A stretch of DNA of 64,000 nt from Mobula hypostoma (Eukaryota), in contig NC_086108.1 of NCBI RefSeq assembly GCF_963921235.1, positions 23,994,001-24,058,000 of the forward strand, written 5' to 3'. The notes under the pieces are model-generated. The model was not told where the DNA came from, did not search any database, and saw only the letters and a list, made by a program, of their open reading frames with translations. A program made the position numbers and the translations under genes. Positions 801 to 57,752 of the stretch are shown here, in pieces (position 1 is the stretch's first letter; every line of letters begins with the position of its first letter).

Positions 801-1403
801 TCCAGCCTCCTGCCAAGCCTCGCCTCGTTTCCTGCCTAGCCTCAAGCCTGAAGATTCCAGCCTCGTCCTGCCTGCCTGCCAAGCCTCGTCCTTGCCTGGT
901 TCTGGGGTACGAGCCAGAGGCAAGACCCAGGTACTGGGTCCTTGTCCAGTCTCTGGCTCGGAGTCCATCCTACCTCCTGCCAAGCCTTGCCTATAGCCTC
1001 AAGCCTGAAGACTCCGGCCTCTAGCCTCTAGCCTCTTGCCAAGCCAAGCCAAGTTTCTAGCCTCTAGCCTCAAGCCTGAAGACTCCAGCCTCCTGCCTCC
1101 TGCCAAGCCTCACCTCTAGCCTCAAGCCTGAGGATTCCAGCCTCATCCTGCCTGCCTGCCAAGACTCGTCCTTGCCTAGTTCTGGGGTCCGAGCCAGAGG
1201 CAAGACCAAGGTACTGGGTTCTTGTCCAGTCTCTGGCTCGGCGTCCAAGCCCGCGTTCCTAGCTGTCTTTTCCAGTCCTGTTCCAGGTTCCTGGTTTTCC
1301 TGTCCATGTCCTTGCCATCGCCCTGTATCCTAGTCCTGTCCCTTGTCCTTCAGTGTCTGTGTCTTGCACTTGGGTCCGTTCCCAGCCACCCCGCCTTATG
1401 ACA
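801..1403 (+). mobile_element. 3' part of an LTR (same family as 13832-15213) inserted in the Gypsy pol gene
   Basis: It ends ...gtcttgcacttgggtcc...TGACA at 1403, homologous to the minus-strand end of 13832-15213, and shares ggttctgggg...ccagtctc(t/g)ggctcggagtcca. It has an internal ~130-bp duplication (837-968 / 1116-1247) and short cctcaagcctgaaga repeats. Confidence 0.7.
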
Positions 1404-3825
1404 AGGAAGGAATTTATAGAGGAACAAAATAAAGATCCTGAAATTGTGGCCATGTTAAAGGAGACAGCTCTCACAGAAGAGGACGTTCAGGAAGAATCAG
1501 TAGGATATTATCTGAAAGGTGGGGTGCTAATGAAGGACCCTCACCCTAACCCTAACCCTACTGTGCTTGCAAGTGAGAATTGGGCCATTGAACATCAAGT
1601 AGTGGTTCCAAAAGTTTACAGGGCTGAAATTTTAAACATGGCTCACAGTATGCCTTTAGGTGGACATTTTGGAGTGAGAAAGACAGTGAACAGGATTACG
1701 AAAGATTTCTACTGACCTAATTTAAGAAAGGATGTTGTGAATTTTTGCCGGATTCGCCATACCTGCCAGGTTGTGGGGAAACCTAATCAGGTTATTCAAG
1801 TAGCACCACTTAAACTGATACCTGCTTTTGGTGAACCATTTTCCTAGGATCATAGAGGATTGTGTTGGCCCATTGCCAAAGACTGCAGCTTGTTATCAGT
1901 ACTTGTTAACAATTATGTGTGCTGCATCTAGGTTCCCTGAAACTGTGCCTCCCGGAAACATCCAGGCCAAGACTGTGTTAAAAGCACTCATCAAGTTTTC
2001 CACACTGGTAGGCCTGCCCAAAGAAATTCAATTTGTCCAGTGTAGTAACTTTACTTTGAGAACATTCCAGGGGATAGTTGGAGAATTGGGAGCTAAGCAC
2101 GTTGTGACATCTGCATATCACACAGAGTCTGAGGGAGCCTTGGAATGGTTCAACTCCACTGTTAAGACCATGATTAAAACGTATTGTCTGGAAAGTTGAA
2201 AAAACTGGGATGAAGGGGGTTCCCCTACTCTTATTTGCTGTTTGGCATTCAGTTCAAGAAACACTGGAGTGTAGTCTGTTTGACCTTTGAACTTGCTCAG
2301 AGAACAGTGGTCTGATCTGAAAATATACGTCAGTGTGCTAGGTTATGTTTTGAAATTCAAAAATGCTTAACAAGATTTGTGTCCTTGCAAAGCAGAGTTT
2401 GCAGAATGTTCAAATTAAAATGGAACATTGGTTTGATAGGATAGCACTTGTGGGTACTGTTATGAAAACAAATGGAGTCGTGAAGACTGGTAATCAGATA
2501 CCAGATAGTTTTAACAAGCTGAATATACAAACTTAGTATCAACAAGATTTAAGAATTCCATTGTTTTGAAAAATATTACTGACAAGATCCATCAGTTGGA
2601 GCCTATACAGCAAAATCAATTGAAAGAATTAATTAGCAAGTATAAAGATTTATTCTCTGACATTCCAAGATGGAGCACAGCTGCAGGGCATGACATCATT
2701 GCAGGCTCAATAAAGCCGATCAAAGAGCATCCTTACAGAACGAATTTAGAGGAAAGTAAAATGGTTGAGCAAGAAATTGGAAACAAGAAAGAACAAGGAA
2801 AGAGAGTGGATGACTGTACTGACAGAGTGGGAAAGCCTAAATACCTTACAAAGAATGACCTGTTAAAAGGATATTGGTGTGTTCCTTTGGCAGAGAGGGC
2901 CAAAGAAATATTTACATTTGTGACACCATCTGGACTGTATGAGTACAATGTTTTACCCTTCGAGATGAAAAATGCTCCAGGGACATTTCAAAGAATGATT
3001 AATTCTGTAATTAGAGGTTTAGAAAACACAGAGGCTTATATTGATGATTTAGTGGTCTGGAATGACACATGGGAAGAGCATACTGCCGCAGTAGAAGAAC
3101 TATTTGACAGACTTTCCAAGGCCAATCTTACCGTGAACCTTGATAAGAGTGAGTTTGGACATATCTGGGCTATGTAGTAGGCCAGGGCCAACTGGCTCCG
3201 TACAGGCCAAGGTTCAAGCTATTGCTGAGTTTCCTGTTCCGACAGGCAAGAAAGCTTTAAGGAGGTTGTTGGGAATGGTTGGGTATTATCGTAAGTTATG
3301 TAAGAACTTCAGGGACATCGCTCTCCCCCTAACGAAACTCCTAGGGAAGAGTGAAAGATTTGTATGGAGTGACCTTTGGCAGGAGGCATTTGAACGCCTG
3401 AAAACTGTCCTGTGTTATCATCCTGTGCTCAAAACACCTGATTTTAATGAACCATTTTCGATCGCGACAGACGCTAGTGACGAAGCTGCTGGGGCAGTAC
3501 TGTTACAGAAGGGTGTGGATGACATTGAACACCCAACAGCTTACTTCTCAAAGAAATTTAATGTGCACCAGAAAATTATTCCACTGTTGAAAAGGAGTTG
3601 CTATCACTTATTTTGGCTTTACAACATTTTGAAGTCTATGTTTGTTTTGCCCAGAAACCACTTGTGGTTTACACGGACCATAATCTATTGGTGTTTCTAA
3701 ATAAGATGAAAGATAAGAATAGAAGGTTATTAAACTGGAGTCTGATCTTGCAAGAATATGACTTAAAAATAAAACATGTGAAAGGCACTGACAACATTAT
3801 AGCTGATTGTTTATCTAGGTGTTAA
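1404..3825 (+). pseudogene. Decayed Gypsy (Gmr1-like) pol: integrase, then RT, then RNase H
   Basis: Integrase zinc-finger (AHSMPLGGHFG...) and core (DCVGPLPKT...SAYHTESEGALE) lie at 1404-2300. RT follows (DLLKGYW, YIDD; 2566-3177), then RNase H (TDASD, YTDH, ADCLSRC*; to 3825). Multiple stops, frameshifts and internal deletions. Confidence 0.92.
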
Positions 3826-4768: not shown

Positions 4769-5217
4769 GTGGGCTTAAACTTTAAGCCTTGAAGATGCAT
4801 GGGCTGAATGCAGGAAAATGAGACTAGGTGAGCGGGCACTCAAATTAATATGGACTCGTTGGGCCAGAGGACCTGTACATTACTGTCTTGGTCCACGACT
4901 CAAAGACAGTACTCATCAATATTCTATGCAATAGTAAAAAGAAAACAGAGAAACAGTTACTTATTGCCTCAACATGCAAAGCACAGGAGCAACTCAGTGG
5001 GCCCAGCAGTCTCTATGGAGGGGAATGGATAGTCAACATTTTGGGTCAAGATCATTCTTCTGGACTGGAGGAACTCAGTGGGTGATCTGTGGAGAGAAAT
5101 GAACACTCCAGATGAAGGGTCTTGATCTGAAAATTTAACCATCCTTTTCTCTCCATAGTCATAGTCACCATAGTCATTTAATCCCTGTTCTCTTTCCAGA
5201 ATAAAATTGTACAGGAC

Positions 5218-9100: not shown

Positions 9101-10389
9101 CAGAGGTCCCCAACCACCGGGCCGCAAAACATGTGTTACCGGGCTGCGAGGAAACGGTATGATTTGGCGATATGAGTCAGCTGCACCTTTCCTCATTCCC
9201 TGTCAACTCGTTGAGCTTGCAAATGACGGTCGGCTGAAAATTATGTTTGACATAACATCTCTGCTGGCATTCTGGATCAAAGACAAGGCTGAATATCCTG
9301 AGATAGCCACGAAAGCACTGAAAACGTTGCTTCCATTTCCAACATATTTCTGCAATGAATGCAACGAAAACTAAATTGTGGAATAGACTGGACATAAGGA
9401 ACCCCCTTCCAGTATCGTTGTCTCCCGTCACCCCTTGATGGGACTGTCTTGTTGCAGGGAAACAAGCCCAGGCCTCCCACTGATTCAGCGATATTGGTGT
9501 GTTGCAATGATTTTATATGTTCATACAGGGAAAATATGTGCTGCATGTTTAATATCCAAACATTACTTAAAATGTTATGATGCTATTGACTTATATAACC
9601 ATAATTACAGCACAGAAACAGGCCATCTCTGCCCTTCTACTCCGTGCCGAACGCTACTCTCACCCAGTCCCACCAACCTGCACTCAACCCATAACCCTCC
9701 ATTCCTTTCCTGTCCATATACCTATCCAATTTTTCTTTAAGTGATAATATCGAGCCTGCATCTACCACTTCTACTGGAAGTTCGTTCAACACTTACTTCA
9801 AGCTCCCCTGTCCTCCCCTGATAATTGACTTATCACTATATTCATGCGAGGAAAATATGCACTGTGTGTTTAATATTAAATTCGTTACATAAACCCTTTT
9901 AGAAAAGAAATTGAGTGGATTAGCCACTTAAACAACAGGAATTCTGCAGATGCTGGAAATTCAAGCAACACACATCAAAGTTGCTGGTTAACGCAGCAGG
10001 CCAGGCAGCATCTGTAGGAAGGGGTCTCGGCCTGAAATGTCGACTACACCTCTTCCTACAGATGCTGCCTGGCCTGCTGCGTTCACCAGCAACTTTGATG
10101 TGGATTAGCCACTTATTACCTATATTCTGGTCGTGATTAGCACCCCCGCCGAACATATTTGCCAAAAACGATTTGTAGAAAAAAATCGGCATGTACACGC
10201 ATGCGCACACAGGTGCCCGCGCAAGGCTTCATGGGCATGGTAGTCTTTCTCGGAGTAAACACAACATACTTGACGGCTACTCTTGTCCGTTGGCAACCCT
10301 ACTCCCCCCCCCCCCCCGGGTCGGCTGGTCCGCAAGAATATTGTCCATAATAAACCGGTCCGCGGAGCAAAAAAAGTTGGGGACCCCTG
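9101..10389 (+). mobile_element. hAT (Charlie/Buster-like) internal-deletion transposon with nested insertions
   Basis: TIRs are CAGAGGTCCCCAAC / GTTGGGGACCCCTG, with a perfect 8-bp TSD GTGTATTC (9093-9100, 10390-10397). A remnant of the transposase C-terminal dimerisation domain reads FWIKDKAEYPEIATKALKTLLPFPTY. Confidence 0.93.
9931..10099. mobile_element. Penelope-derived fold-back mini element nested in the hAT element
   Basis: It has ~50-bp inverted arms and a 16-bp direct repeat GTGGATTAGCCACTTA at 9915-9930 and 10100-10115. Confidence 0.88.
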
Positions 10390-13831: not shown

Positions 13832-15213
13832 TGTCACAATGGTGGGGGCATTGGGAGCAAGGGTGGACCCCAATGCAAGACACATCTTGTGAGGTTACTT
13901 AGATTTAGTTTATTGTTCGATACCAGGAGAGCAAGGCAGGAGCAGGAGTAGCGAACTGGACGACTCAGGACTACTACTAGGCTGGGACTAGGGGTCTGGG
14001 CTAGGACTCAGAATTGGACTCCAGAACTGGAGGAGACATGAAGAGGCTAGGGTATGGACTCCGAGCCCGAGACTGGGCAAGGACCCCAGAACCAGGCATG
14101 GACATGGCATGGGCTAGGGAGAGGAGGAACATGGAAAAACAGAGCCTTGGTCTCAGGAGAGCAGGTACATGGAACCATGGACACATAAACAGAACACAGA
14201 GTCGGGACCCCTCCTTGGGAACAGGACACTGGGCCGGGACTCATGACTCCCCCGCAGGGCAATAGCAAGACGGCCCAACTTACCCCACGGAGGTGAGGAC
14301 AAGACAAGGCAAACACCAAAGAACAACACAGTTCCTATCTAGCTCCAGCGATAGAACTAGACCGAGGTGCAGGCGAGGGCTACAGACGAAGGCTAGAGGC
14401 GAGAAGGGCAGAGAAGAGATTCAGACAGGGGGGGTAGGACAGGAATCACAGACCGCCAGAGCCAGGACTTGACTAGGTACTTGGATGCCGTCAGGGCCAG
14501 GACTTGACTTGGTACTCGAATGCTGCTAGGGACAGGACTTGACTTGGTACTCAGATGCTGCCAGGGAAAGGACTTGACTTGGTACTCGGATGCTGCCGGA
14601 GCCAGGACTTGACTTGGTACTCGGATGCTGCCAGGGCCAGGACTTGACCTGGTACTCGGATGCTGCCGGAGCCAGGACTTGGACGTGGTACTTGGATGCC
14701 ACCAGAGCCAGAACTTGGACGTGGTACTTGGATGCCGCCGCAGCCAGGACTTGGACGTGGTACTTGGATGCTGCCAGAGCCAGGTCGTGGTACTTGGAAC
14801 CTCCCAATAGTGGCGAGTTCTAAACTCGGCCCAGGAACAGTAGACAGCAGCTTCTGATTCTCTCTGGCGGGTTAACTGACGGACCCACCTTGATGAGGAA
14901 ACTTTGCAGGCTCGCTTCGGCAAGGTAACTGGACAGGGTTGCTCCGGTGAGGAAGGGCGAATTACCGGCACTCGCTTCGGCAGAGACTGGGCTTGCTACA
15001 GCCAGATGACATTGGCACACCGTACCTTTGATGACTTTGCAGATGCTCCCGCGCTGAACAGCTGAAAGCCAGAGACTATAAATTACCGGTTCAGCCGAGC
15101 GTTAATTGCCTCTAATCACCAAAGCCGAGGGATACGGGAAAACAGGGAATCAACGGTGCGGATCGTAACATAAACAAGGTAAATTTAAAGAGACCCCGAT
15201 CCAGACCATGACA
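13832..15213 (-). mobile_element. Solo LTR (1382 bp) with internal minisatellite
   Basis: Termini are TGTCA...TGACA with a perfect 5-bp TSD CCTCT (13827-13831, 15214-15218). There is a minus-strand AATAAA near 13910. Confidence 0.88.
14455..14800. repeat. 35/36-bp minisatellite, about 9.5 units
   Basis: The unit is gccaggacttgacttggtactcggatgctgcc(a/g)g(g/a). 35-bp units start at 14461, 14496, 14531, 14566, 14601 and 14636; 36-bp units start at 14671, 14707 and 14743; a partial unit starts at 14779. Confidence 0.95.
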
Positions 15214-15474: not shown

Positions 15475-15625
15475 CAAACAAAAAAAAACATCTGCAGATG
15501 CTGGAAACCCAAGCAACACAAACAACAGGACTGCTGAAAGGTCTTGGCTTGATACGTCAACTGTACTATTTTCCATAGGTGAGGCCTGGCCTGCTGAGTT
15601 CCTTCAGCATTTTGTGTGTGTTGCC
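15475..15625. mobile_element. Penelope-derived fold-back mini element
   Basis: The left arm atctgcagatgctggaaacccaagcaacaca and the right end tgtgtgttgc are inverted, with a degenerate hammerhead between them. Confidence 0.7.
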
Positions 15626-21538: not shown

Positions 21539-21743
21539 ACAAACACAAAATGCTGGAGGAACTCAGCAGGTCAGGTGGCATCTATGGAAAAAAGTATAGT
21601 CGATGTTTCGGGCCAAAACCCTTCAGCAGTCCTGAAACATTGACTGTACTTTTTTTCCATAGATGCTGCCTGGCCTGCTGAGCTCCTCCAGCATTTTGTG
21701 TTTGTTGCTCAGATTCCAGCATCTGTAAACTTTCTCTTGTTTG
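21539..21743. mobile_element. Penelope-derived fold-back mini element
   Basis: It has ~70-bp inverted arms and an imperfect TSD taatacagagta (21527-21538) / taatatacagta (21744-21755). A minus-strand hammerhead-like motif reads ctgctga-agggttttggccc-gaaacatc. Confidence 0.85.
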
Positions 21744-41567: not shown

Positions 41568-43160
41568 ACACTGGACAGCCAATGTTTTCAAAGGTATTGC
41601 TTCTTCAGAATTTTTTTGTGGTTATGATAGACCGCTTGAAGTTGAACACAATTATAATTTCAGCCTACTGGTACCATGTAGAAATTTGGAGAAACAAGAA
41701 ATTAACCTATATTGAATGTAACGCTCTTAATTGCATAACTGTGCTGACACTTTGCCATATTTTAACTAAACTAAAAATGTTCTGTTGATGGTTTTCATTG
41801 GTACTCAGTGGCTGAGGCTTCTCGCTTAAGTGTCCAATAATAATCTGCAAGTTGCCCTGATACTGTTTCTCCATGACCGCAATGTCCTGGTAAAACCTTT
41901 CACCATACTTGTCACTGACAGCTCCAAGATTAGCAGGGAAGAGGTCTAGATGGGAATGCAGCAAATGAATCTGTAGTGACATGTTGCACTCCATGGTTTT
42001 GTGTGCTTGAAACATGTTGTCAGCCAGCTGCATGTAGTTCGGTGCTCTGTAGTTACCAAGAAAATTTTTAACATTCTTGAATGCCTCCCATTCAATTTTC
42101 TCCGGTTCCACTAGAAGTTCTTCTAATTGCCTGTCCTTGATGATGTGCTTGATTTGTGGAATAATAAAAATACTGTCCTTAATCTTGGCATCAGTTATTT
42201 TGGGAAACAATGGTCTCAAATATTGAAATCCATCATATAAATTTTTGTGCCTGGTAACATCTTTGCAGTCTTGAACATAGTAATTATGCATTTACCCATG
42301 ACAAGCCCAAGTCTCTGATCAGATCACAAACAAGAGAAAAATATGCAGATGCTGGAAATCCAAGCTTGTTGTGTGATTGAGTTAGCAAATAAGGCAACAT
42401 AAAGGGATGAAGGGAGATTGGGGTATTCAATAGATTTCCTGATTTTAGTAGTGAAACCAGACACACTGGTCAGATAGATCTAGCAGTCCGTCACGTGACC
42501 CTTCTGACCTTGCCATATCATTGGAACAGTGAATTGCATTGACTGCCAAGTACCTCTGAGCGAAGTTCTAAGATCGATAGTGCATGTTGCACAACAAATG
42601 TGAAGAGCCCAGTCTATCCCTTGGTCATCAATTTTACACCAAAAGTAGAGCTCATAAGCTTTCTTAATAAAAGGAGTCATGTTCCATCTTTGAGACTAAA
42701 TGTATACTCTCCACAAATATAACAGAAATGAACCTATATTGACTATAATGCACATAATCGCAGCTGGTAAAATCCTGAATATACAATTATTTGATTATAA
42801 TGAGTACACACAATACGCTATGTGCGTAGAGCATGTACATCAACATCATTGCAAACTGATACACATGTAAAAGCAATGCATAGAACAGTGTGTGTGCGAT
42901 GCTTTTATAGCCTTTCTAAAACTCTCCCTGCCATTCAACATCTGCCCTGCCTAAGCGTGCCCAGGCATGTTTGGACAAGATAGAAGACTTCTTAGCTTAC
43001 GTTGTGGATAACATTTTAATTGACTTGAATTATGAAATGAAATAACAAATGTAGGTAATACGTGATAGGGATATTTCATGGTGATTTTCATGATCAGCAG
43101 CACAAAATCCATAAGATACACCCAAAAGTATTCAGGAAGCAATATTTTTGTGGTCCAGTA
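41568..43160 (-). mobile_element. DNA transposon deletion derivative, probably Sola1-type
   Basis: Transposase remnants include FCYICG, YELYF...HICCATC...VPMIW...HVTDC and CNMSLQIHLLHSHLDLFPANLGAVSDKYGERFYQDI. Imperfect termini (ac)actggac / gtccagt are flanked by AATT and ATAT. The superfamily label is from memory. Confidence 0.7.
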
Positions 43161-43344: not shown

Positions 43345-46080
43345 ATATACTTCAAAAATAGACCTTTTTCACAATAAAAATATACAAAAAAATTAGTGCA
43401 AAACTTCTACATTCATAGTCATTCCATTCAGTAGTGTTATTTTTTAAAACCTTAGCACCATGACCACGTACTGTATGTGCCCCCTTTGGGTGATACACCC
43501 TTTAGTTGTTTAAGTGACCTCCTCATCCAATTTGGGCCCACCGTGTGCAGTATTGGAAGGCGACCGGATTATGGTCCTTCCCACTGAACATTTGCATTGG
43601 CTGCACCAAGGTTTGCTTCATCCCTCAGCACATGCCCTTGTAGTCAGGAATGTGCCAATAGGCAACATTCCCTTTTGGACATCTTGCTGTGCTGGAAGAC
43701 CAACAGGTTTCAGGCAGATCAAAGTGCCTGCTCTGTTATGAAGCTGGAAATGAACCGGGATCTAGACCCTTGTATCCTTCTCTACATCGCTTAATAAATC
43801 CACAGTCTACAAAGGGATGGGGACTGCCTCTGCCCTGCCACGGCCTTTACAAAGGCAGTGTGCATTGAGGAAGATGTGTCATCTGTTTACGAAGGAGTTG
43901 ACTGTAAGGACTCTCTCACTGCCAGCCAGGTGAGATCTTGATGAATTCTAGTGATGAGCAGTAGATTTGGATAGCTTGCTCAGGGAACCACTTACAGTAT
44001 CCATAGAGTCCCTGTTTCGCAGTGTCTGCAGGGCATTCCATGCTGACCACTGCCAGATGGACTTGTGGTCAAAGGTATTTACTTGGAACAATTCTTCCAC
44101 AAAGGGCAGGTAGTCTGGCAACATCCAGCTGACCGCGGTGTTGTGAAGCAATAAGGGCAGACTTGTTCTCACAAAACCGGGGACAGGAAGAACCTTAGCA
44201 CAGAGTGGCACTTGGTGTCCGTGTACTTTGGATCAATGCAACAGCCACACATGAAGGTGGTCATCAGGATGAGGGCAACACTGGGCACAATGTTGCTCCC
44301 TTTCTCCGGGGATTTGTACATCATGATCCTTGGGACTTGCTCAATCTCAGACCTGCTGGTGAACTGGATGGTGGTTTGGGTGATCACTGAAGGAGGGAAA
44401 GAGGAAATGGGCCACAGCAGCCCTGAGAATACATTCACCTGATAACTAAGTTCTTCCCAGATACTGACAGCGAATTCCATTTCCATAAACCTAATTTTTC
44501 TTTGACGTTCCCAATTCACTCCAGCTTTTTACTTTTTACAAAGCTCAGCCTCTCAGAACTATATCCCTAGCACCTTCAGGTAGTCAGACCTGATGGTGAA
44601 GGGGGACTTTGCATCGGCCAGGACTATTGCTGAAGATTGGGGCCTCACTCTTGCAATGGTTAACTCAGGGCCCTGATGTCAATTCAAACTAGCTGCAGGG
44701 ATGAAATGAGCATTGGCTCATGCAGAAGAGGGTGACATTGTTCATTACAGGGAGGTTTGACATGATAATATCACCAGTGCCTGATAATATCACCCCCTCC
44801 CCATGTTCTCACTACTCCAGATGGATTCAGCAAAGGGTTCCATGCAACATGTAAACAGGAGAGAGGAGACTAAACAGCCCTGCCTGACTCCAGGCCTGGT
44901 GAGAAAACTTTGTCTCTAACCCATTGATTTGAATTGCACTATGGATACTTGTTTACTGCAGTTGGTTCCAATTTCTGATTCCCTCCCCTAAAGCCATTTT
45001 GGACAACACATGTGTCATGTATATGTGTGATATCCTGTCAAAGGCTTCTAATCAGGCAGTCATCCACCCATCTGTTGTGCACATATGTGACAGTATACCT
45101 GTGCAACACAAGACTACCGAAGATTTTCTTGCTAGGTATAGCAAGGCTTAGTCTGCACAGATCACCTGTCTCATAGAAGACTTGACCCAGTTGGCTATAG
45201 CTTTGAATAGGACCTTACAGTCTACATTCAAAACTGAAATGGGTCTCCAATTCCTCATATGCTCCCTCTATCCCCTTCTGTTTGTTGATGACGATAATGA
45301 AGCCCTTCCTCATTGAGCCTGCTGTGGTATGGCCAGAATCATAGCATTGTGCATGGCCGGAATCACAGCGTTATGCACGGCCGGAATCACAGTGTTATGC
45401 ACGGCCAGAATCACAGCATTACGTACGGCCAGAATCACAGCGTTATGTGTGGCCAGAATCACAGCGTTATGTACGGCCAGAATCACAGCGTTGTGCACGG
45501 CCAGAATCACAGCGTTGTGCACGGCCAGAATCACAGCGTTATGTACGGCCAGAATCACAGCGTTGTGCACGGCCAGAATCACAGCGTTATGTACGGCCAG
45601 AATCATAGTGTTATGCACGGCCAGAATCACAGTGTTATGCACTTCCAGCACATCTGGCCCCATCAAGTTGCACAGAGTCAAGTACAACTGTGTCGGTAAG
45701 CCATTGCTTCCGGGAGTTGTATTCATGCCAAGGGAATGGATGGAACCAGTCAGCATCTCCAGGGACTGTGGCTGATCCACACTTTCTTGCTCCTGGGCTC
45801 TCTGTGGTCCTTCTGTCATACAGACTGACATAGAAGAGTCTGCAGATCCTCAATATATCTGTGTGCCAGGATGGTACTGAGGTATTCTCTTCCTTAAGGC
45901 TATCACAGTGCTCCTCCATGAACCTTTTGGAAGGAACAGCATGAGAAGATTACATCCTGCTCCACAAAACAGACTCTGGATCTGAAGATGATTCCAAGAC
46001 AAAGAGCACAATTTGACAGCTCTTCACCTCTCAGAGTTCTGCTCTCACATCCATCTCTCTTAAATGCAGAATCAGTTGCT
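43345..46080 (-). mobile_element. Tx1/L1-clade LINE ORF2 remnant
   Basis: Contains TPGSNGLP, a WRPIS.LNVD.K-like motif (~45190-45255), C-terminal Cys/His region remnants and an AT-rich 3' end. Confidence 0.7.
45329..45642. repeat. 24-bp minisatellite, about 13 units
   Basis: The unit is ggccagaatcacagcgtt(a/g)tg(c/t)ac, which gives the repetitive ORFs (AVHNAVIL)n. Confidence 0.97.
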
Positions 46081-47989
46081 GTAAGTCTGCATTTTTAAAA
46101 ACTTACGTGGATAAACTCTCCACGATACACACCCCATCAAAACCTTTACAGGTACCAAGTTCTTGAGCACCTTCATACAAATCACTTGAATGAAACACTG
46201 GGAGTTGCAGAAGTTTCAGCAGTCTAAAGAGGACAGGTCTCAAGGATAGTGTTCAATAACATAATACTTGTGAGTTTATCCTTAGAAGTGTCCTCTCTCA
46301 GCAATTTTCTGCACCTCAAGTACCTTATTTACATAACCTGGACGAAATTTATGAGCAGCTTGTGGTGCTGTTACTAGTATCACATTTATGTGGTAATCGA
46401 CCCTGTCCATTGTCATTCTAAAATAAGCCTTTTTAACGTAAAATCAATGTTTAATTCTATCTGCTCACAAAGTGAGCCTCTGTTTCTGCTTGTTTTTACT
46501 TCCTCACATCAATTGTTTTTCAATCATGTTTCAATCATGCTCTTTTGTTCAATGACAATGCTAATATTTTTTTAAAAATGAAAAAAAAACCTTGAAAATT
46601 CTTCAATACAATCCTGATGACCATTCTTACCAAATTCTGATTCAGAGATCAAAACTATCCAAGAATAACTCAAAGATAAAAACAAATTAGCTTTATTGTT
46701 CACATATACATCGAAACATCCAACTTAAAAGTGAAATGCGCGTTTGCGTCAGTGACCAACACTGTATGAAGATGTGCTGGGGACAGCCTGCAAGTGTGGT
46801 CATGGTTCCAGCGCCAACATAGCATGTCTACAACTTAATAACTCTCAGCCATACGTCTGAGGAAACCCGGAGCATCCGGAGGAACATACAAACTTCTGCA
46901 GCCAGTGGTGGGGATTGAACCCCAGGCTGGCTCTGTAAAGAGTTATACTAACCACTACGCAACGATGCTGCCTTCCTTCCACTCCATCATCAGATTTCTG
47001 AACACTCCATGAGTCCATGAACCGTAACTCTGATTGGGGTCGTGGTTGTCTCTATTTGAGTGACTGTGAGGACCTCACCCCGGTGGCACCCTCTTCTGGA
47101 CTGTCCATGTGATCACTGGCCCACCACTGAAAAGGCCCAGCTCATTTGTACTCACTCCCTATGCAGGCTGGGGTGACTGCCTTCAGATGCTGTGCGTATT
47201 TTCTTTTCTTTCTTAGTCTGCCAAGCCATCGAAGTTGTGGAGCCTGATGCCTCTGTGTAACTCGGATCCCTTCCCAGCTGCTTTCCCCAAAACCTTTTCT
47301 ATTCTGAATATTACAAAGTTCAAAGGTGCAATTTAATGCTGGAGAAATGTATGCAATATACATCTTGAAATGCTTTTACTTTGCAACCATCCACGAAAAC
47401 AGAGAAGTGCCCCGAAGAATGAATGACAGTTAAATGTTAGAACCCCAAGGTCTCCCCCAGCTCCCCCCTCCCACACATAAGTGCAGCGAGCAACAATACC
47501 CCTTCCCTCCACCGGCAAAAGAAAGCATCAGCACTGTCACTCAGCACTCAAGCATGAGCAAAGCTACAGCAAAGACATAGACTTGCAGTTACCCCAAAGA
47601 CTTTGCGTTTCACCCAGTATTTGACAAAACCACAGGTTCTCTCTCTCCCTAAACATCTACCTTCATCAACCAGCCTTTATGACAGATGATAGTTACCATT
47701 ATATTTTAACATGCTGCTCACGGCTTGCTGTCGCAATCTCGTGCTGACTTCTGCATTTGTATTTGTTGTGGTCTGCTTCCATCAGGAGATGTAATGCAGC
47801 AGGATGGTGTTCATCACTTAGGTTCCCTGCAAAGACACTGTTACAGGGCACACTTGACCTTTCACTCTGTCTGTGAGGGCGACAAGAAGGCGAGTGCAGA
47901 GTTTTGTTGGGACTGTACACCAACACAGGCGACACTCATCCGGAGCACCACCTGTCGTTGTATCTTGTATCCACCCGGGAGAGAAGCTG

Positions 47990-49970
47990 TCTTTTCAGCC
48001 AGGTCCCTTATCATGACTTTGTCACCTGCCCTCTACTCTCTCTGCACCAATCCCAACCTCACCATCAAACCCGCAGACAAAGGGGGTGCTGTTGTAGTGT
48101 GGCGCACTGACTCTGACTTTGTTGTGGCGAGGTGGCAATTCTCGGACACCTCCTCATACCTACCCCTCAAAGAGGATGCCATCTCCAGACCATCAGGAAA
48201 CTGTCTCCGACATCATCACTGACCTCATCCACTCTGAACTCCCATCCACTGCCACCAAATCCTTACCCCACACTGCACGCTTCTACCTCCTACCCAAGCT
48301 CCACAAATCAGACTACTGGGTAGGCCTATTGTTCTGCCCACTTTTGCCAAACTGGACTCAGGTCCTCATATCTCAATTCCATTCTATTCACCTTCGTTCA
48401 GTCTCTACCCACATATATCTGCGACACTTCTCACGCCCTCCATCTTCTCAGTAATTTTCGATTCCCTGGCCCAGACTGACTCACCTTCACCATGGATGTT
48501 CAGTCCCTAAACATTCTGTCCCCATCAAGAAGGCCTCAAAGCTCTCTGCTTCTTTCTTGATAAAAGAACCAACCAATCTCACTCCACCACCACCCTCCTC
48601 CATCTGTCAGAACCGGTCTTCACCCTGAACAGTTTTTCCTTCAGCTCCTCCCACTTTCTCCAAACTTGAGGAACAGCCAAGGGCATTTGCCAGAGCCCCA
48701 GCAATGCCTGCCTCTTAATTGGCTACGGAGAACAGTCCATGTTCGAGATCTTTATATTCTCCCGCTTCCTCCACTACATTGGCACTACTTCGTGCACCCG
48801 TGCTGAGCCTGTCAATTTTATCAACTTTGCCTCTAACTTCCATCCTGCCCTTAAGTTCACTTGGTCCTTCTCTGACACCTCCCTCCTCTTTCTCCATCTC
48901 TGGAGACAGACTGTCTACCAACATCTTTTATAAACCTACTGATTCCCAGTTATCTGACTATACCTCTTCCCACCCTATCTCCTGTAAAAATGCTAATCCC
49001 TTTTCTCAGCTTCTTCACCTCCACCGCAACTTTTGTCAGGAAGTGGCATTCCATTCCAGGACATTGAGATGTCCACCTCCCTTAAATAACGGGGTTCCCT
49101 CCCTCCACCCTTGATGCTGCTCTCACCTGCATCGTCCCCATTTCCTGGAAATCTGTGCTCACCTACCATCCTATCAGCCTCAACATCCAACATATTATCC
49201 TCTGCAACATCTGCCATCGCCACAGGGATCTTAACACTAAACATACCTTTACTTTCCAACCCCACATTCTCTGCTTTCATCCCTCCCAACTAATTTCTCT
49301 CCTAGCACTTATCCAAGTGAGGCAACACCTCGCCTACGAATATGCTGGGGATACCTACTGTGTCAGGTGCTCCCGATGCGGCCTCCACTTCATTGGTGAG
49401 ACCCATTGTAAATTGGGGGACCGCTTCGTCGAGCATCTCCACTCCATCCACCATGTGGGACCTCCCGGTGGCCAAACATTTCAATTCTGATTCTTATTCC
49501 CATTCCAACGCACCAGTCCATGATGTACCAAGATGAGTTCACCCTCAGAGTCTGGGTACCTGCGCAACACAAGACTATTGAAGGGTACCCTCCAGCCTGA
49601 TGGCATGAATATTGATTTCTCCTTCCGGTAAACAAACTTCCCTCTTTCCCTGTTTCCCACTCTGTTCTTTTACCTCCTCTCACCTGCCTATCACTGCCCC
49701 CTGGGTTCCCCCTCCTTCCGTTTCTCCAATAGTTCACTCTCCTCTCCTATCAGATTCCTTCTTCTCCAGCACTTGACCTTTCCCACTCACCTGGCTTCAC
49801 CTATCACCCTCCAGCAAGCTTTCTTCCCCTCCTCCCACCTTCTTATTCTGGTGTCTTCCCCCTTCCTTCTCAGTTTTGAAGAAGGGTTTCTGCCCAAAAT
49901 GTCAACTATCTAGTTATTTCCATAGATGCTGCCTGACCTACTGATTTCCTCCAGCACTTTGTGTGTGTTC
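47990..49970 (+). mobile_element. Penelope-like element, decayed RT plus GIY-YIG endonuclease plus pseudo-LTR
   Basis: Contains LTIKPADKGGAVVVW, ARFYLLPKLHK and YCVRCSRCGLHFIGET...RFVEH, then a pyrimidine tail and a degenerate hammerhead at about 49871-49910. Confidence 0.9.
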
Positions 49971-50553
49971 CTATGAAATACAGCAGCCTGTATTGGGAAT
50001 TTTATTATAGAGACAACTTTCAAGTCACTTAAAGACTTTCAGTGCAAATTCACAAGGATTTGTCAAGGATTGGAAACTAATTATGAGGAGAAAGTTGAGA
50101 TACTAGCACATTTTCCACTGCAGCAGAAAAATCAATAAGGATTTAATGGGCATTTTCAATAATGAAAATATTTTGGTTGTGAGTAGGGAAGACACAACTT
50201 CATCTCAAAAATCAGCAGGTTTAGTTATGTCAGTAAGCAGCAGCATGCAGCGTAGCATGGAGAAGATTATTTTATGCAGGATTGAATTGTTTCATTAAAA
50301 TGACTAGAAGTCAAAAAAAACTGACATTGGAGAAATAGAACCACAATGAAGAAATATGACTAGATGAACTCAAGATAGCAAATAAAATTTTAGTAAACTG
50401 ATTGACTTGGAAGAATGTGCAAATGGAATTTAGATAAGAGGATTCTAAGGAGGAATATGTTGGGACATCCATCTGATACTCTCAACCTCAAATCAGAATT
50501 GAGACTGCAATTCACTCAGAATAAGAAACCGAGTTATGTACCTCCCAATTCTA

Positions 50554-51358
50554 AACACAAAATAATCTGCAGATGCTGTTGTCAAAGGAACACTCACAAT
50601 GCGCTGGAGGAACTCAGCAGGTCAGTCAGCACATACGCTTACAGGAATAAGTGCCGGGTGGGAGATCCGTGGGGATGGACATGCGGATAAGTGAGTCGCG
50701 GAGGGATCGATCCCTACACCTGTCCCTACATCTCCTCTCTTGCCACCATTCAAGGCCCCAAACAGTCCTTCCAGGTGAGGCAACACTTCACTTGCGAATC
50801 TGTTGGGGTCATCTATTGCATCTGGTGCTCCCGGTGCGGCCTCCTCTATATCGGTGAAACCCGACGCAGATTGGGGGACCGCTTCGTCGAGCACCTCCAC
50901 TCAGTCCGCCATAACAGACAGGATCTCCCGGTAGCCACCCACTTCAACTCTGCTTCCCATTCCCATTCAGATATGTCCATTCATGGCCTCCTCCACTGCC
51001 ATGATGAGGCTAAACTCAGGTTGGAGGAGCAACACCTCATATACCGTCTAGGTAGTCTCCAGCCCCTTGGTATGAACATAGAATTCTCCAACTTCCGGTA
51101 ATTCCCTCCCCCTCCCTTCCTCTATCCCTATTTCATATCGCCTCCCTCATAGTTCCGCCTCCTTCTACTATTGTTCTCCTGCCTCCCCTCCCCCACCCCT
51201 TTGTCTTAAAAATTACTGTTTTTTTCAACTACCAGCATTCTTCAAACCCTCCCCAAAGTTCTTCCTTCGGTCCTGACGAAGGGTTTCGACCCAAAACGTC
51301 AACTAATCTTTTCTACTGATGCTGACTGACCTGCTGAGTTCCTCCAGCGCATTGTGAG
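50554..51358 (+). mobile_element. Young 5'-truncated Penelope element with an open GIY-YIG frame (50691-51101) and inverted pseudo-LTR
   Basis: The frame reads VIYCIWCSRCGLLYIGET...RFVEH...VATHFN. The TSD tgtacctcccaa(t/c)tcta lies at 50537-50553 and 51359-51375. An inverted pLTR piece is at the 5' end. Confidence 0.93.
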
Positions 51359-52719
51359 TGTACCTCCCAACTCTATCAGATGTCCTAAGGATGATCTTGC
51401 CTCGGTAGAAAAAAATCGTTAACTTGTTGAGTTACAGGCCTTAGGATTCCAACTGCACAGTTACTTGAACATTTTCTATTTGTAAGTTACTGATATTTGT
51501 CACCTCATTGCTGAACATCTACTTCTTACACAATCGATGATGGTTTGCTGAATAAAGTTGCAACAAGATGTCTTGCTGCAAACTGATGCCTAGGTATAGA
51601 TATTTTGCCATTTAGTTTTATTTAAACAGGGAAAAGGAACATTGGTCGGGATATCGAAGGAGCCCATGGGATCTCAGAGGAGCTTGCTGGGATGTCGGAG
51701 GGATCAGGTTGGATCTGGAGGAGCAGATCTGGCTGCAGACCGTGTTGCTGCTGCTACTCGGAAGCATCAGAGATAGTATAGTATAACCGTGGGAGATTTC
51801 ACTTGTGATCGCAAGATTCTGTTGGACAGTGATAATGTAAGCTGTCATAGAGCTGTTAACCTTGTCTGAAGGAGGGACAGTCGACATGGGAGCTGTGTAG
51901 CCTCAGTTGTAGCAGGAACTAGGCCGCAAACCACGGGCTTGCATGCTGCTGTAGACCAGGTGAGAGTACTACAGTGTGGTTGAGCTCGGCTGGGGCCTGT
52001 CCTATCCCTTCAGTGCTGCCCTCCCACGTTCGAGCAGTGGAATGCCAGGCTGGATTGCATGCATCTGTACACTGCTGGGAGACTTTACCATCAATTGCAG
52101 GGCTTTGTTGCTCAGGGTCTTGGACTATATATGTGTTTTGAATGAATGTTTCTTTGCTCAATATTTTGAATTATGTTACTATTTTGAAAGTTTTGCACCT
52201 TGGCCCCAGAAGAACACTGACTCATTCCATTGTATCTATGGTTTGAATGATTATTAAACTTGATTTGATTTAAAAAATATAAACACTTTTCCACAGCAGT
52301 TGAGGAAGGTGGGCAATTGGAATGGTATTCTGTAGAGTGTACACTAGCCCAACTATAGTAAGTTAGCAGAAAATTAAGACGTAATTCCCCTGCAATGGTG
52401 AGGGTGTCTGAGGTGGTGGCCAAAGTGAGCCTTCATCTTCACTCTTGGATGGATGTAGAAGTCAGGTGCTTGGAGAGCTTTGGCTAACCTCTTACCCAAC
52501 ATTGCTAACATATGTTTTCTGCAAATTAATGTGAAACATTGTGTGAGAGTTGATATTTCTGACCTGTGGTTCTCATTTCTCACGCAATAACAATGTTCAG
52601 GCACACAAATCTATGTCATAGCATAGGATTCCCTCCCCTCAATACCCTCACCAATCCCTCTCCACTACACCACATCTTTTTCATTATCTAACTTTTCCTT
52701 AAGTGTATCTGTGTTATCT

Positions 52720-52822
52720 GTCTGTCCCAAAGAAAGGTCATGGCCCAAAACGTCAACTGTTTATTCAATTCCATTGATGCTGCCTTGACCTGCTGAGTTC
52801 CTCCAGCATTTTGTGTGCGTAT
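52720..52822 (+). mobile_element. Penelope pseudo-LTR fragment
   Basis: Reads ggcccaaaacgtcaactg...gatgctgcc..gacctgctgagttcctccagcattttgtgtg. Confidence 0.75.
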
Positions 52823-54452
52823 GTGTGTTATTTGCCTGATTACTCCATGTGGTCCCATTATCCTCAGTCTAAATGTCCTTCGGGTATAGAAGCTTTTCCT
52901 AAAGTAGCTACTAGATTAATTAGTGACTAAATTCTATATAGGGGCCCTAATTGTAGTTTCCACCCAACATAACATTCTCACTGTGTTTATCTTTTCAACA
53001 TTTTAAGAGCTCCATTAGTTCACTCCCTGGCCTTGCTTTTTGTTTTTATTTCCAAGAATTATAATCACTTCTTTCTGGTATTATCCTTCTGAATACTTTT
53101 ATTCTGCACGTTTCCATTGCTCTGCATCATTTTTTTTTAAAGATCACACCATGCAGGACACACTGTTGACTTTCTGAGCTCTAGGCCTTCATACAATTTG
53201 GTAAAACCGCTGTGTCTCACACCTGTTGCTACGGAGATGAAACTATGCACTTAGTTATCATATGTTATGCTTTTTTCATTTGGTGATACATTTCACCATT
53301 TTCGTATACTTGTAAGCCCTAGCTTCCTTTGCCTCTTAAACAAATTTTAACCTTATTTTCTAAGAATCATAAAACTTCCTGTACTCTCTCAAATTGAGCT
53401 TAATCCAGTTTAAATCATGCCAATATGCAGATCAGCTTGGCAACACCAGTACTCAAGTTGCAGTCAAGCCGTACATAATCACATGGGATTTAATTTTTCA
53501 AAACTCTTTAGATTCTGGATTAGTTCCTGAGGATTGGAGGGTGGCTAATGTAACCCCGCTCTTTAAAAAAGGAGGGAGAGAGAAACCGGGGAATTATAGA
53601 CCGGTAAGCCTGACATGGGTGGTGGGGAAAATGCTAGAGTCAGTTATCAAAAATGTGATAACAGCACATTTGGAAAGCGGTGAAATTATCGGACAAAGTC
53701 AGCATGGATTTCTGAAAAGAAAATCATGTCTGACGAATCTCATAGAATTTTTTGAAGATGTAACTATAGAGTGGAGAGGAGAGAACCAGTGGATGTGGTA
53801 TACAGTATTTGGATTTTCAAAAGGCTTTTGACAAGGTCCCACACAGGAGATTAGTGTGCAAACTTAAAGCACACGGTATTGGGGGCATGGTATTGATGTG
53901 GATAGAGAATTGGTTAGCAAAGACAGGAAGCAAAGAGTGGGAATAAACGGGACCTTTTCAGAATGGCAGGCGGTGACTAGTGGGGTACCGCAAGGCTCAG
54001 TGCTGGGACCCCAGTTGTTTACAATATATATTAATGTCTTAGACGAGGGAATTAAATGCAGCATCTCCAAGTTTGTGGATGACACGAAGCTGGGCAGCAG
54101 TGTTAACTGTGAGGAGGATGCTAAGAGGATGCAGGGTGATTTGGATAGGTTAGGTGAGTGGGCAAATTCATGGCAGATGCAATTTAATGTGGATAAATGT
54201 GAGGTTATCTACTTTGGTGGCAAGAACAGGAAAACAGATTATTATCTGAATGGTGGCCGATTAGGAAAAGGGGAGGTGCAACAAGACCTGGGTGTCATTG
54301 TACACCAGTCATTGAAAGTGGGCATGCAGGTACAGCAGGTGGTGAAAAAGGTGAATGGTATGCTGGCATTCATAGCAAGAGGATTCGAGTACAGGAGCAG
54401 GGAGGTACTACTGCAGTTGTACAAGGCCTTGGTGAGATCACACATGGATATT

Positions 54453-54486
54453 GTCCTGACGAAGGGTCTTGGCCTGAAACGTCGAC
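54453..54486 (+). ncRNA. Minimal type-I hammerhead ribozyme motif in a Penelope pseudo-LTR
   Basis: The motif is GTC-CTGACGA-AGGGTCTTGGCCT-GAAAC-GTC^GAC: core CUGANGA and GAAA, stem II AGG/CCU, palindromic ACGU stem III, stem I GUC/GAC. Predicted cleavage is after 54483. Activity is untested. Confidence 0.72.
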
Positions 54487-54584
54487 TGCACCTCCTCCTA
54501 GAGATGCTGCCTGGCCTGCTGCATTCACCAGCAACTTTTATGTGTGTTGCTTGAATTTCCAGCACCTGCAGAATTCCTGTTGTC
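54455..54584 (+). mobile_element. 130-bp hammerhead-bearing Penelope pLTR insertion
   Basis: A 10-bp TSD TGGATATTGT lies at 54445-54454 and 54585-54594, inside the CR1 RPHLEYC codons. Confidence 0.9.
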
Positions 54585-55406
54585 TGGATATTGTGTGCAG
54601 TTTTGGTCCCCTAATCTGAGGAAAGACATTCTTGCCATAGAGGGAGTACAAAGAAGGTTCACCAGATTGATTCCTGGGATGGTAGGACTTTCATATGATG
54701 AAAGACTCGATCGACTAGGCTTATACTCTCTGGAATTTAGAAGATTGAGGGGGGATCGATTGAAACGTATAACATTCTAAAGGGATTGGACAGGCTAGAT
54801 GCAGGAAGATTGTTCCCGATGTTGGGGAAGTCCAGAATGAGGGGTTACAGTTTGAGGATAAAGGGAAGCCTTTTAGGACTGAGATGAGGAAAATCTTCAC
54901 ACAGAGCGTGGTGAATCTGTGGAATTCTCTGCCTCAGGAAACAGTTGAGGCCAGTTCATTGGCTATATTTAAGAGGGGGTTAGATATGGCCCTTGTGGCT
55001 AAAGAGATCGTGGGTATGGAGAGAAGGCAGGTACATGGTTCTGAGTTGGATGATCAGCCATGATCGTACTGAATGGCAGTGCGGGCTCAAAGGGCCGAAT
55101 GGCCTGCTTCTGAACATATTTTCTATGTTTCTATGTTAATGGTCAGGAAGTCATACAAAAACACTGCGAAGAATATTGGAGCAGATGAGAAAATAAGTGT
55201 TTAGCTCACACCTCTTCCTGCGCTCTCTTTATAATTCGAGAGTATTCCATTGGATGCCCAGCAGTGTTCTGCCATGTCACTGCTGGCTCCAACATCATTC
55301 CTGCTTCCTTTGTGTGAAGGAAACTTTAAAGGTGAAAATGGTTGTGGTCTCACTGTTAGAGATCATTCTGGGTTATGAAATTATGGGTAGCATAATTATG
55401 AATTAA

Positions 55407-56112: not shown

Positions 56113-57752
56113 CCCTTACATACTGTTCAGATTTTATACCTTCCCACTATGGTCAGGGTCAATTTTGACCCTAGCCCAAGAATCCCCCTATAACAAGGGT
56201 CTATACCAAATTTTGAGCCACTGATGTATTTACAATGTCAAAATAGCCTATCTGACATTAATAAAAGTGTGATTAATCCTTAATTAATGTATCAGAGATG
56301 AGGGACAGTGTATTTTTTAGGTTTTGCACCACTCGCCATTGGAGAAAAAACATACAGTCACACAATATAATGTCCTATTTTACCTAAGACATGAAAACAT
56401 AACAGCCATAAAGAATTAAATATATTTTATTGAAACTGAAAATGGCAAGAACATTCTGGAACTGTGGGGTTTATTATATAACCATTACAACCAGCAAACA
56501 CTGTCCTCACTGCTATATCATTAAAAAAATCCTACTACCTACTATCTAATTATAACCATTAACTATTAATTCAACATTAAATAACATTTAACCAACAAGC
56601 TAAACAAAAAAGTAGTTGCTATTTACAAACTAGTCCTTGCATTCAAAGCCGTAGTGGGAAACCTTGCGTGTGTGGCCCTTGCATATGAGTCTACCACATT
56701 TGCTGCAAGTAGCCGATGTTTTGCAGTCATTCTTTGCAGGGCAGAAGTTGCATTTCCTTCTTGTTGAGCAGGACCAGGTTCAGATTGCTGCACTGCCCTT
56801 CCCACTGCTGCTGAGAATGCTGCGCGGGGAAGGTGTTCTCGCCTTTGCATAGAAGGAGTCACAAGGGCCTTTCTAAGCTCCTCCAAAAAGAACCTCCTCC
56901 AGTTTCTCTTGCTTGCCCTCCAGGTAGGGCTCAGGTCACTCTGGATGACAAAGGCATTGTAAGTGGAAATGTCAATGATGTTACCAAATATAGCGAGAGG
57001 CCAGTGGGCTGTTCTCCTCTTGCAGCTGTATGTGCCTGTAACTTTGTCAAGGTTGTCAACCCCCCCTTTGTTGGCATTGTAGTCCAGGATGCTGGCTGGT
57101 CTTCTGCCCCCTGATCACGTACCTCTGCAGCCTTATGTAGAGTGCTCATGAGGATCTCATTCTTGTTCTTCTTTGCCATATACAACATAACTATGGTGTC
57201 ATGGGTGAACACAAACTTAGAAGACAAGACGTCTCTCCCCCTTCTTTCAGTCAGAGGAGGTGGCAGCTCCAGCTTGTTCTGCCTCACAGTACCCACCATT
57301 GTGATTTTCTCCTTTAGGAGTGCCTGACCAAGCTCATGAGATGTGAAGAAGTTGTCACAGGTCACGCTGTGTTCTTTCAGCCCTTCTGTCATGTCCAACA
57401 CGACGCGCATACCATGCTTTCTCTCCGGGCCTCCCACAGCTGGCTTCCCAGTATACACTTGCATATTCCAAGCATAACTGGAACGCGCATCACAGGCTGC
57501 CCATATCTTTATCTCATATTTCCCTGGCTTGCAATCAGTATGGGTAAACTTTGACCCGGAACATCTTCAGTGTTGCAAAAATCGTAGCACCTGTACAAAA
57601 GTTTAATTTTTAAAAATTTTTTCATTTTTGCTTATTTTGGGTCACTTTAGGAAAAGTCATAACAATTTGGCAGGAAAAAATGGCATTTAGGGAGTTATCA
57701 CTGTGGTCAAAGGTCAAAAAGGGTCAAAATTGACCCGAACAGTATGTAAGGG
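56113..57752 (-). mobile_element. piggyBac internal-deletion element (PGBD4-like transposase remnant)
   Basis: TTAA lies at 56109-56112 and 57753-57756, and the perfect 16-bp TIR is CCCTTACATACTGTTC. A subterminal gggtcaa(t/a)(t/a)ttgaccc palindrome occurs at both ends. The transposase remnant (MQVYTGK...TCDNFFTS...VGTVRQNK) is frameshifted and lacks its N-terminal half. Confidence 0.95.

Follow-up and report, generated by a model that had tools for sequence, protein, structure and literature searches.

A 130-bp insertion in a CR1-type LINE, analysed within a 64-kb stretch of ray DNA (Mobula hypostoma; hereafter the window), is probably the old, dead terminal hammerhead-plus-tail portion of a Neptune-type Penelope-like element (PLE), its start set by a preferred reverse transcriptase (RT) stop at the hammerhead's 5′ edge. 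That it derives from RNA of an autonomous PLE family is very likely. The copy duplicated its target, extends across the predicted hammerhead cut site and terminates close to the long 3′ end of its family, a high-copy one in which long members have GIY-YIG. It is mostly ordinary, a common relic; its non-random start is a moderately supported lead.

The insertion and its parent family

The inserted PLE 3′ terminus occupies 54455-54584 on the + strand and comprises a hammerhead motif, a spacer, a stem-loop and a tail, opening with CCTGACGA-helix II-GAAACGTC^GAC. It is flanked by the 10-mer TGGATATTGT at 54445-54454 and 54585-54594 (both +), which occurs exactly twice in the window; the right copy is defined by this repeat and by comparison with paralogues. 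The host is a CR1-type LINE fragment (53500-55137, + strand, start approximate), recognized by RT pieces, a TTCTATG tail and paralogues 90-95% identical to it (95% for one paralogue upstream of the insert, 90-92% for two downstream). In all three paralogues that were aligned over this site the 140 bp are missing and the sequence is TGGAGTATTG/CT; the empty site with its G is also found in public contigs. That G is absent from both copies of the target site duplication (TSD), a private 1-bp deletion. Since both copies lack it, it was a locally mutated target that became duplicated, and the deletion together with the empty paralogues confirms that the insertion is genuine and younger than the local CR1 deletion. 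The CR1 copy split by 130 bp within a 10-bp TSD, as originally predicted, is thereby borne out by the 10-mer pair, the paralogues and the contigs.

The TSD may be 11 bp long: at 54444 the left copy has A, where the right copy and two of the three paralogues have C. The insert boundary is uncertain by one base on the right and by 2 nt on the left, the latter because GT closes the TSD and the element has AGTCC there. This final GT of the left TSD, a 2-nt microhomology with the element, supplies two of the three base pairs of helix I in this copy. The original prediction held that the insert has no coding sequence. One reading frame is in fact open through it, yet there is no sign of coding, and a 2-nt indel that separates the subfamilies in a profile alignment of window copies argues against one conserved frame across the hammerhead-tail unit.

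The family of the insert is represented in the window by 24 arms from about 15 insertion events (counted by hand). The arms come from 25 profile hits, with two upstream of 51273 merged and the arm 5085-5106 added by eye; the search profile included some antisense GIY-YIG sequence from one seed. Seven of the arms run far upstream through a pyrimidine-rich pseudo-LTR, some into GIY-YIG. A hit at 51266 was counted as long, and shows that differing upstream sequence can mimic a 5′ end.

The GIY-YIG domain at 50691-51101, upstream of a related pseudo-LTR, scores 24.8 bits over 50691-51098 against a Pfam cut-off of 22.6 and has 17 longer relatives, the top ones being Hypanus and Mobula proteins at 75-88% identity. 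The named relatives carry RT motifs, a cysteine linker (CxxxCxxC or CxxxxCxxC) and GIY-YIG at the C terminus. The linker, as CX2-5CxxC before GIY-YIG, was found in P0001-P0004 and P0010; the RT motifs of P0002 and P0003 were seen by eye, Pfam giving GIY-YIG only, and below cut-off, for these two. This layout of RT, cysteine linker and GIY-YIG is described as the mark of Neptune/Nematis (PMC8557442). The domains point to an EN+ PLE of Neptune/Nematis type as the parent family, an assignment drawn from sister subfamilies and from a linker common to Neptune and Nematis.

Other PLE traits agree. The copies have inverted 5′-truncated arms and TSDs of 10-20 bp, a convincing TSD being found in 4 of 11 insertion events tested. 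Among related contigs the 3′ ends form two classes about 40 nt apart, at ~54549-54551 and about 7 nt beyond the insert end, and the segment of the insert between the short and long classes (54552-54583, +) is taken as the PLE tail, which in PLEs is optional and 30-40 bp long. Two such classes about 40 nt apart are typical of PLEs, and for the Anolis element PAc two internal RT start sites one tail apart have been shown (PMC11167929). The alternative in the original prediction that the insert is a very short Penelope copy thus stands, both by the 3′ end classes and by kinship with arms that reach pseudo-LTR and GIY-YIG.

Three copies in the window are most informative. A second copy of the insert's own subfamily (9931-10099, no strand assigned, ~92% identical) consists of two head-to-head arms within a 16-bp TSD. 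A solo copy of a related subfamily (52724-52820, +) has the same 5′ boundary as the insert, the short 3′ end and a TSD of about 20 bp with three mismatches. A long copy of a sister subfamily (50555-51361, +) includes an inverted short arm, GIY-YIG, pseudo-LTR and a hammerhead at 51273, with a 17-bp TSD. Both window copies of the insert's subfamily are short, and the window holds no long one. In run X1, 42,165 contigs aligned to a 231-bp stretch that included CR1 flanks. Letter differences are usable from 54483 on, earlier positions being too near contig ends; steps in contig depth, which short contigs produce at their edges, were excluded, and no contig reaches across the whole locus. The insert differs privately from most X1 contigs at 54495 and 54523, and thus ranks as a decayed copy within a large subfamily. 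The family, though not demonstrably this copy, also appears in contigs of runs X15 and X17, whose label as RNA is our guess.

The window contains further mobile and repeated DNA. Pieces of a decayed LTR retrotransposon at 1263-3700, which we take to be Gypsy-like, have integrase before RT in the list of open reading frames, and short repeats at 800-1250 adjoin them. A long decayed PLE copy at 47700-49977 has RT-region and GIY-YIG remnants in several frames. At 56623-57566 (−) lies a broken piggyBac-like transposase with a match to PF13843, and at 41707-42291 (−) a 194-aa open reading frame that by eye resembles a DNA-transposon protein and has no Pfam match. Minisatellites at 45331-45642 (24 bp × 13) and 14455-14784 (35 bp × 9.3) each lie inside open reading frames.

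The hammerhead motif

With the numbering of PMC4209133, the core CUGACGA (C3-A9) lies at 54456-54462 and is followed by a bulged A at 54463. Helix II (54464-54475) has 4 bp and a tetraloop, its closing pair 10.1-11.1 being G-U. The GAAA core, palindromic ACGU and C17 follow at 54476-54483; helix III could form only in a dimer, and cleavage is predicted at 54483/54484. The 3′ strand of helix I is at 54484-54488, with three bases paired in this copy (all features on the + strand). The insert therefore has what minimal hammerheads share in the core (CUGANGA, GAAA and UH), palindromic 15-16 and the bulged base, and departs from them in having G-U in place of G10.1-C11.1 and 3 bp in place of 4-5 bp in helix I. 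Where a complete minimal hammerhead core had been claimed, the core is indeed intact and the ribozyme is incomplete.

Twelve window copies were aligned over the motif. Their majority letters give a clean minimal hammerhead with a full helix I of 5 bp, a 4-bp helix II and the palindromic ACGU; G10.1-C11.1 is present in 4 of the 12. The 10.1/11.1 dinucleotide is TG in five copies, CA in five, CG in one and AG in one, the pattern of CpG decay, from which the G-U closing pair of the insert probably arose. Only in the insert are the core, the exact palindrome and C17 all intact.

Structural tests lent the motif no further weight. The covariance-model search proposed with the original prediction was negative: Rfam gave no hammerhead match at E≤10 in either the 9 kb or the 201 bp searched. 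Covariation among the 12 copies was not above that of shuffles, and the insert fold was no more stable than shuffled sequences (z −0.93). In the minimum-energy fold of the monomer the core is paired with the palindrome. Relative to the co-fold minimum, a double-hammerhead fold costs 20.6 kcal/mol; as the figure for three other copies is 17-29 kcal/mol, this energy does not discriminate. A 19-nt motif search found one locus in viral contigs, by eye unrelated, and 114 loci in metagenomes; these 115 loci were rejected as copies of the insert, since BLAST against it gave matches of only 21-28 bp.

The predicted cut site is 28 nt inside the insert. A start that far upstream implies that the boundary was not made by cleavage and that the template was uncleaved. 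Single minimal hammerheads failed to cleave in vitro (PMC4209133), and the Anolis PAc hammerhead needed protein for cleavage (PMC11167929). The lone hammerhead of the insert is probably a passenger that does not cleave.

Clustered 5′ ends and their explanation

The 5′ ends of the arms were called by hand, in small numbers, and measured from C3 = 0. Of 24 arms, 14 reach the hammerhead start; seven of these stop at −7..0, none stops at −8..−100 and seven pass −100. When 8 stops in 1742 arm-bases serve as background and a 20-fold correction covers the post hoc choice of interval, the cluster at −7..0 has p 2.5e-5, or 2.5e-4 without the insert and 2.5e-3 without the insert and the second arm of one event. 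At four of the seven clustered stops one arm is joined to another, and microhomology is visible in most of these joins. The solo insertions by themselves, two of five that reach C3 stopping there, are not significant after correction. A weaker cluster of four arms at +28..+34 (25423, 25435, 10025 and 5085-5106), at or just after the predicted cut, has a corrected p of 0.037; these arms could record either cleaved templates or microhomology joins at helix I, three of the four junction arms being readable as the latter. The original prediction had proposed that randomly scattered 5′ ends would indicate ordinary truncation. The outcome is intermediate: the ends do cluster at the 5′ edge of the hammerhead, yet roughly half the arms reaching that edge extend past it.

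At 4979-5160 a compound insertion has three short arms, two of which meet head to head exactly through complementary helix I strands. Two independent inverted insertions, at 21625-21637 and 15526-15536, have a common 11-nt junction at the hammerhead start.

Public contigs give a mixed picture of the same edge. Before 54453 there are 468 loose ends in the DNA run X1 and 390 in the DNA run X5, the largest pile among the 24 of 732 rows listed; the pile pools all ends at or upstream of 54453 with their position unresolved, and counts contigs, not copies. Agreement within the pile is 0.37-0.44, with 0.39 and 0.37 for the two DNA runs, against 0.60-0.82 in homogeneous controls from the same table. 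Simulation, which assumes that agreement is the mean majority share per column, put unrelated flanks at 0.30-0.38 and contigs that all enter the pseudo-LTR at 0.60-0.90. Close to the junction the consensus of the pile resembles pseudo-LTR, and beyond that it is rich in A; the median loose length of the pile is 30-51, compared with 255 at most 3′ ends. From consensus and length the pile is read as a mixture, up to about half of it true junctions within some 20 nt and the remainder continuing into repeated DNA. The contig table of molecule starts lists no place where many molecules begin.

The preferred reading, a favoured RT stop, has one serious competitor, which accepts the same PLE origin and takes the start as coincidental: plain 5′ truncation, with clusters produced by microhomology joining of head-to-head arms, for which the helix I strands and recurring CAG/CTG words would be the best partners. 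We consider this distinctly possible, at well under even chances. Arm-to-arm homology of 4-7 nt is present at junctions 5062, 5109, 15531, 10018 and 25423, such joining also covers the +28..+34 cluster without invoking cleavage, and extensive 5′ truncation is normal for PLEs (PMC8557442). When the insert and the four arm-to-arm joins are dropped, two stops are left (p 0.06, uncorrected) and the significance of the cluster is abolished. Against it, the two TSD-bounded solo copies (the insert and 52724-52820) begin at the same base with target homology of merely 1-2 nt, and the heterogeneous contig pile has letters unlike anything in the insert.

The clustered ends could also suggest a self-propagating non-autonomous unit, with its own and possibly circular RNA, mobilised in trans by PLE protein; both window copies of the insert's subfamily are short, and animal retrozymes have been proposed to stem from PLE pseudo-LTRs (10.64898/2026.07.22.740005). 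We judge this improbable, and the retrozyme-like half of the original prediction is not supported. The insert is monomeric: at least two tandem units each with a hammerhead, as in retrozymes, were not seen in the 64-kb window, where none of eight tandem-repeat rows is this unit. Nor is its hammerhead canonical type I, having no helix III stem and no Rfam match. Two Pol III box patterns (A and B) matched nothing in 54401-54600, and the TSD abuts the hammerhead directly. In three of four runs related contigs have a pseudo-LTR-like consensus upstream, no go-back joint occurs among the 15 of 47 contig joints listed, and a unit without a full helix I would have no way to restore its ribozyme from a linear copy. 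Less probable still, and to our minds very remote, is a boundary cut by the hammerhead itself or a copy retained as a working ribozyme. Its motif is uniquely well kept among the 12 copies, but the 28-nt offset from the cut, the private changes at 54495 and 54523, the G-U closing pair, the 3-bp helix I, covariation no higher than in shuffles and the in vitro inactivity of single minimal hammerheads all speak against it.

Under the preferred reading, the element's GIY-YIG would nick the target and RT, with uncleaved RNA as its template, would prime at the distal internal start site, two steps modelled on PMC11167929. Synthesis would then stop preferentially at the hammerhead 5′ edge, the foot of helix I, as we propose here, and the cDNA would join the target through 2 nt of microhomology. 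There are two candidates for the stop: an RNA 5′ end at the foot of helix I, where cDNA made on the upstream pseudo-LTR would run off, or a polypyrimidine-AG site immediately in front of helix I that may block RT on unspliced RNA. Such a site precedes helix I in five of six long arms inspected (one shifted by a base), the long arm at 51273 lacking the AG, and also in the contig consensus of three of four runs. The intron of D. virilis Penelope, which follows a first exon of 45 nt (PMC2377424), runs up to the 5′ end of helix I (PMC4209133). Run-off on spliced RNA is disfavoured, because an upstream exon is missing from both solo copies. A shared spliced leader was considered as the source of the insert's start and rejected.

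More tentatively, the short hammerhead-plus-tail copies may form a distinct class of PLE product, like strong-stop DNA, in which RT runs from the internal site of the upstream pseudo-LTR until it meets a fixed landmark on the RNA, located at the foot of helix I and formed by either the transcript start or an occupied splice acceptor. If so, the 5′ ends of short copies map that landmark in vivo, the class accounts for the abundance both of lone minimal hammerheads and of inverted short arms, and the weaker cluster at the cut site is a record of self-cleaved templates. Should the 5′-end cluster hold genome-wide, the ray copies would be a fossil read-out of PLE reverse-transcription stops, which bear on open steps of the PLE cycle: the origin of pseudo-LTRs and inverted arms, and whether the hammerhead cuts its template in vivo.

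Comparison with known systems

The literature covered, which for PMC11167929 and 10.64898/2026.07.22.740005 means main-text portions, yielded no account of PLE copies whose 5′ ends gather at helix I; the portions consulted of PMC4209133 do not describe such clustering, and those of PMC11167929 report no 5′-end cluster for Anolis PAc.

Non-LTR retrozymes (PMC7229834; 10.64898/2026.07.22.740005) resemble the insert in being short and apparently non-coding, with a type I hammerhead, PLE pseudo-LTR kinship and a long TSD. They are tandem units, each with a hammerhead, and have circular RNAs, whereas the insert is a dispersed monomer with a minimal motif; retrozyme hammerheads are described as canonical in PMC7229834 (2020). 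D. virilis Penelope (PMC2377424; PMC4209133) and most long ray copies have a splice-acceptor-like site directly before helix I. In Penelope the start at 371 and the intron at 416-491 have been mapped, while the ray site is predicted from sequence.

The Anolis Poseidon element PAc (Frangieh et al. 2024, PMC11167929) has in common with the ray family two 3′ end classes downstream of the hammerhead and an uncleaved template. The ray family differs in its Neptune-type cysteine linker, and at the place of the PAc start AUG the ray subfamily reads ACG.

Closest to the insert are the minimal hammerhead ribozymes of metazoan PLEs (Cervera and de la Pena 2014, PMC4209133), which have the same type I core, bulge between 9 and 10.1 and palindromic 15.2-16.2, a short helix I, and mostly occur as single motifs on truncated copies. 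The insert differs from those described there in its 4-bp helix II, in G-U at 10.1-11.1 and in a helix I of 3 bp. It behaves like a by-product of a PLE and belongs to the PLE minimal-hammerhead kind, with the last two features degenerate.
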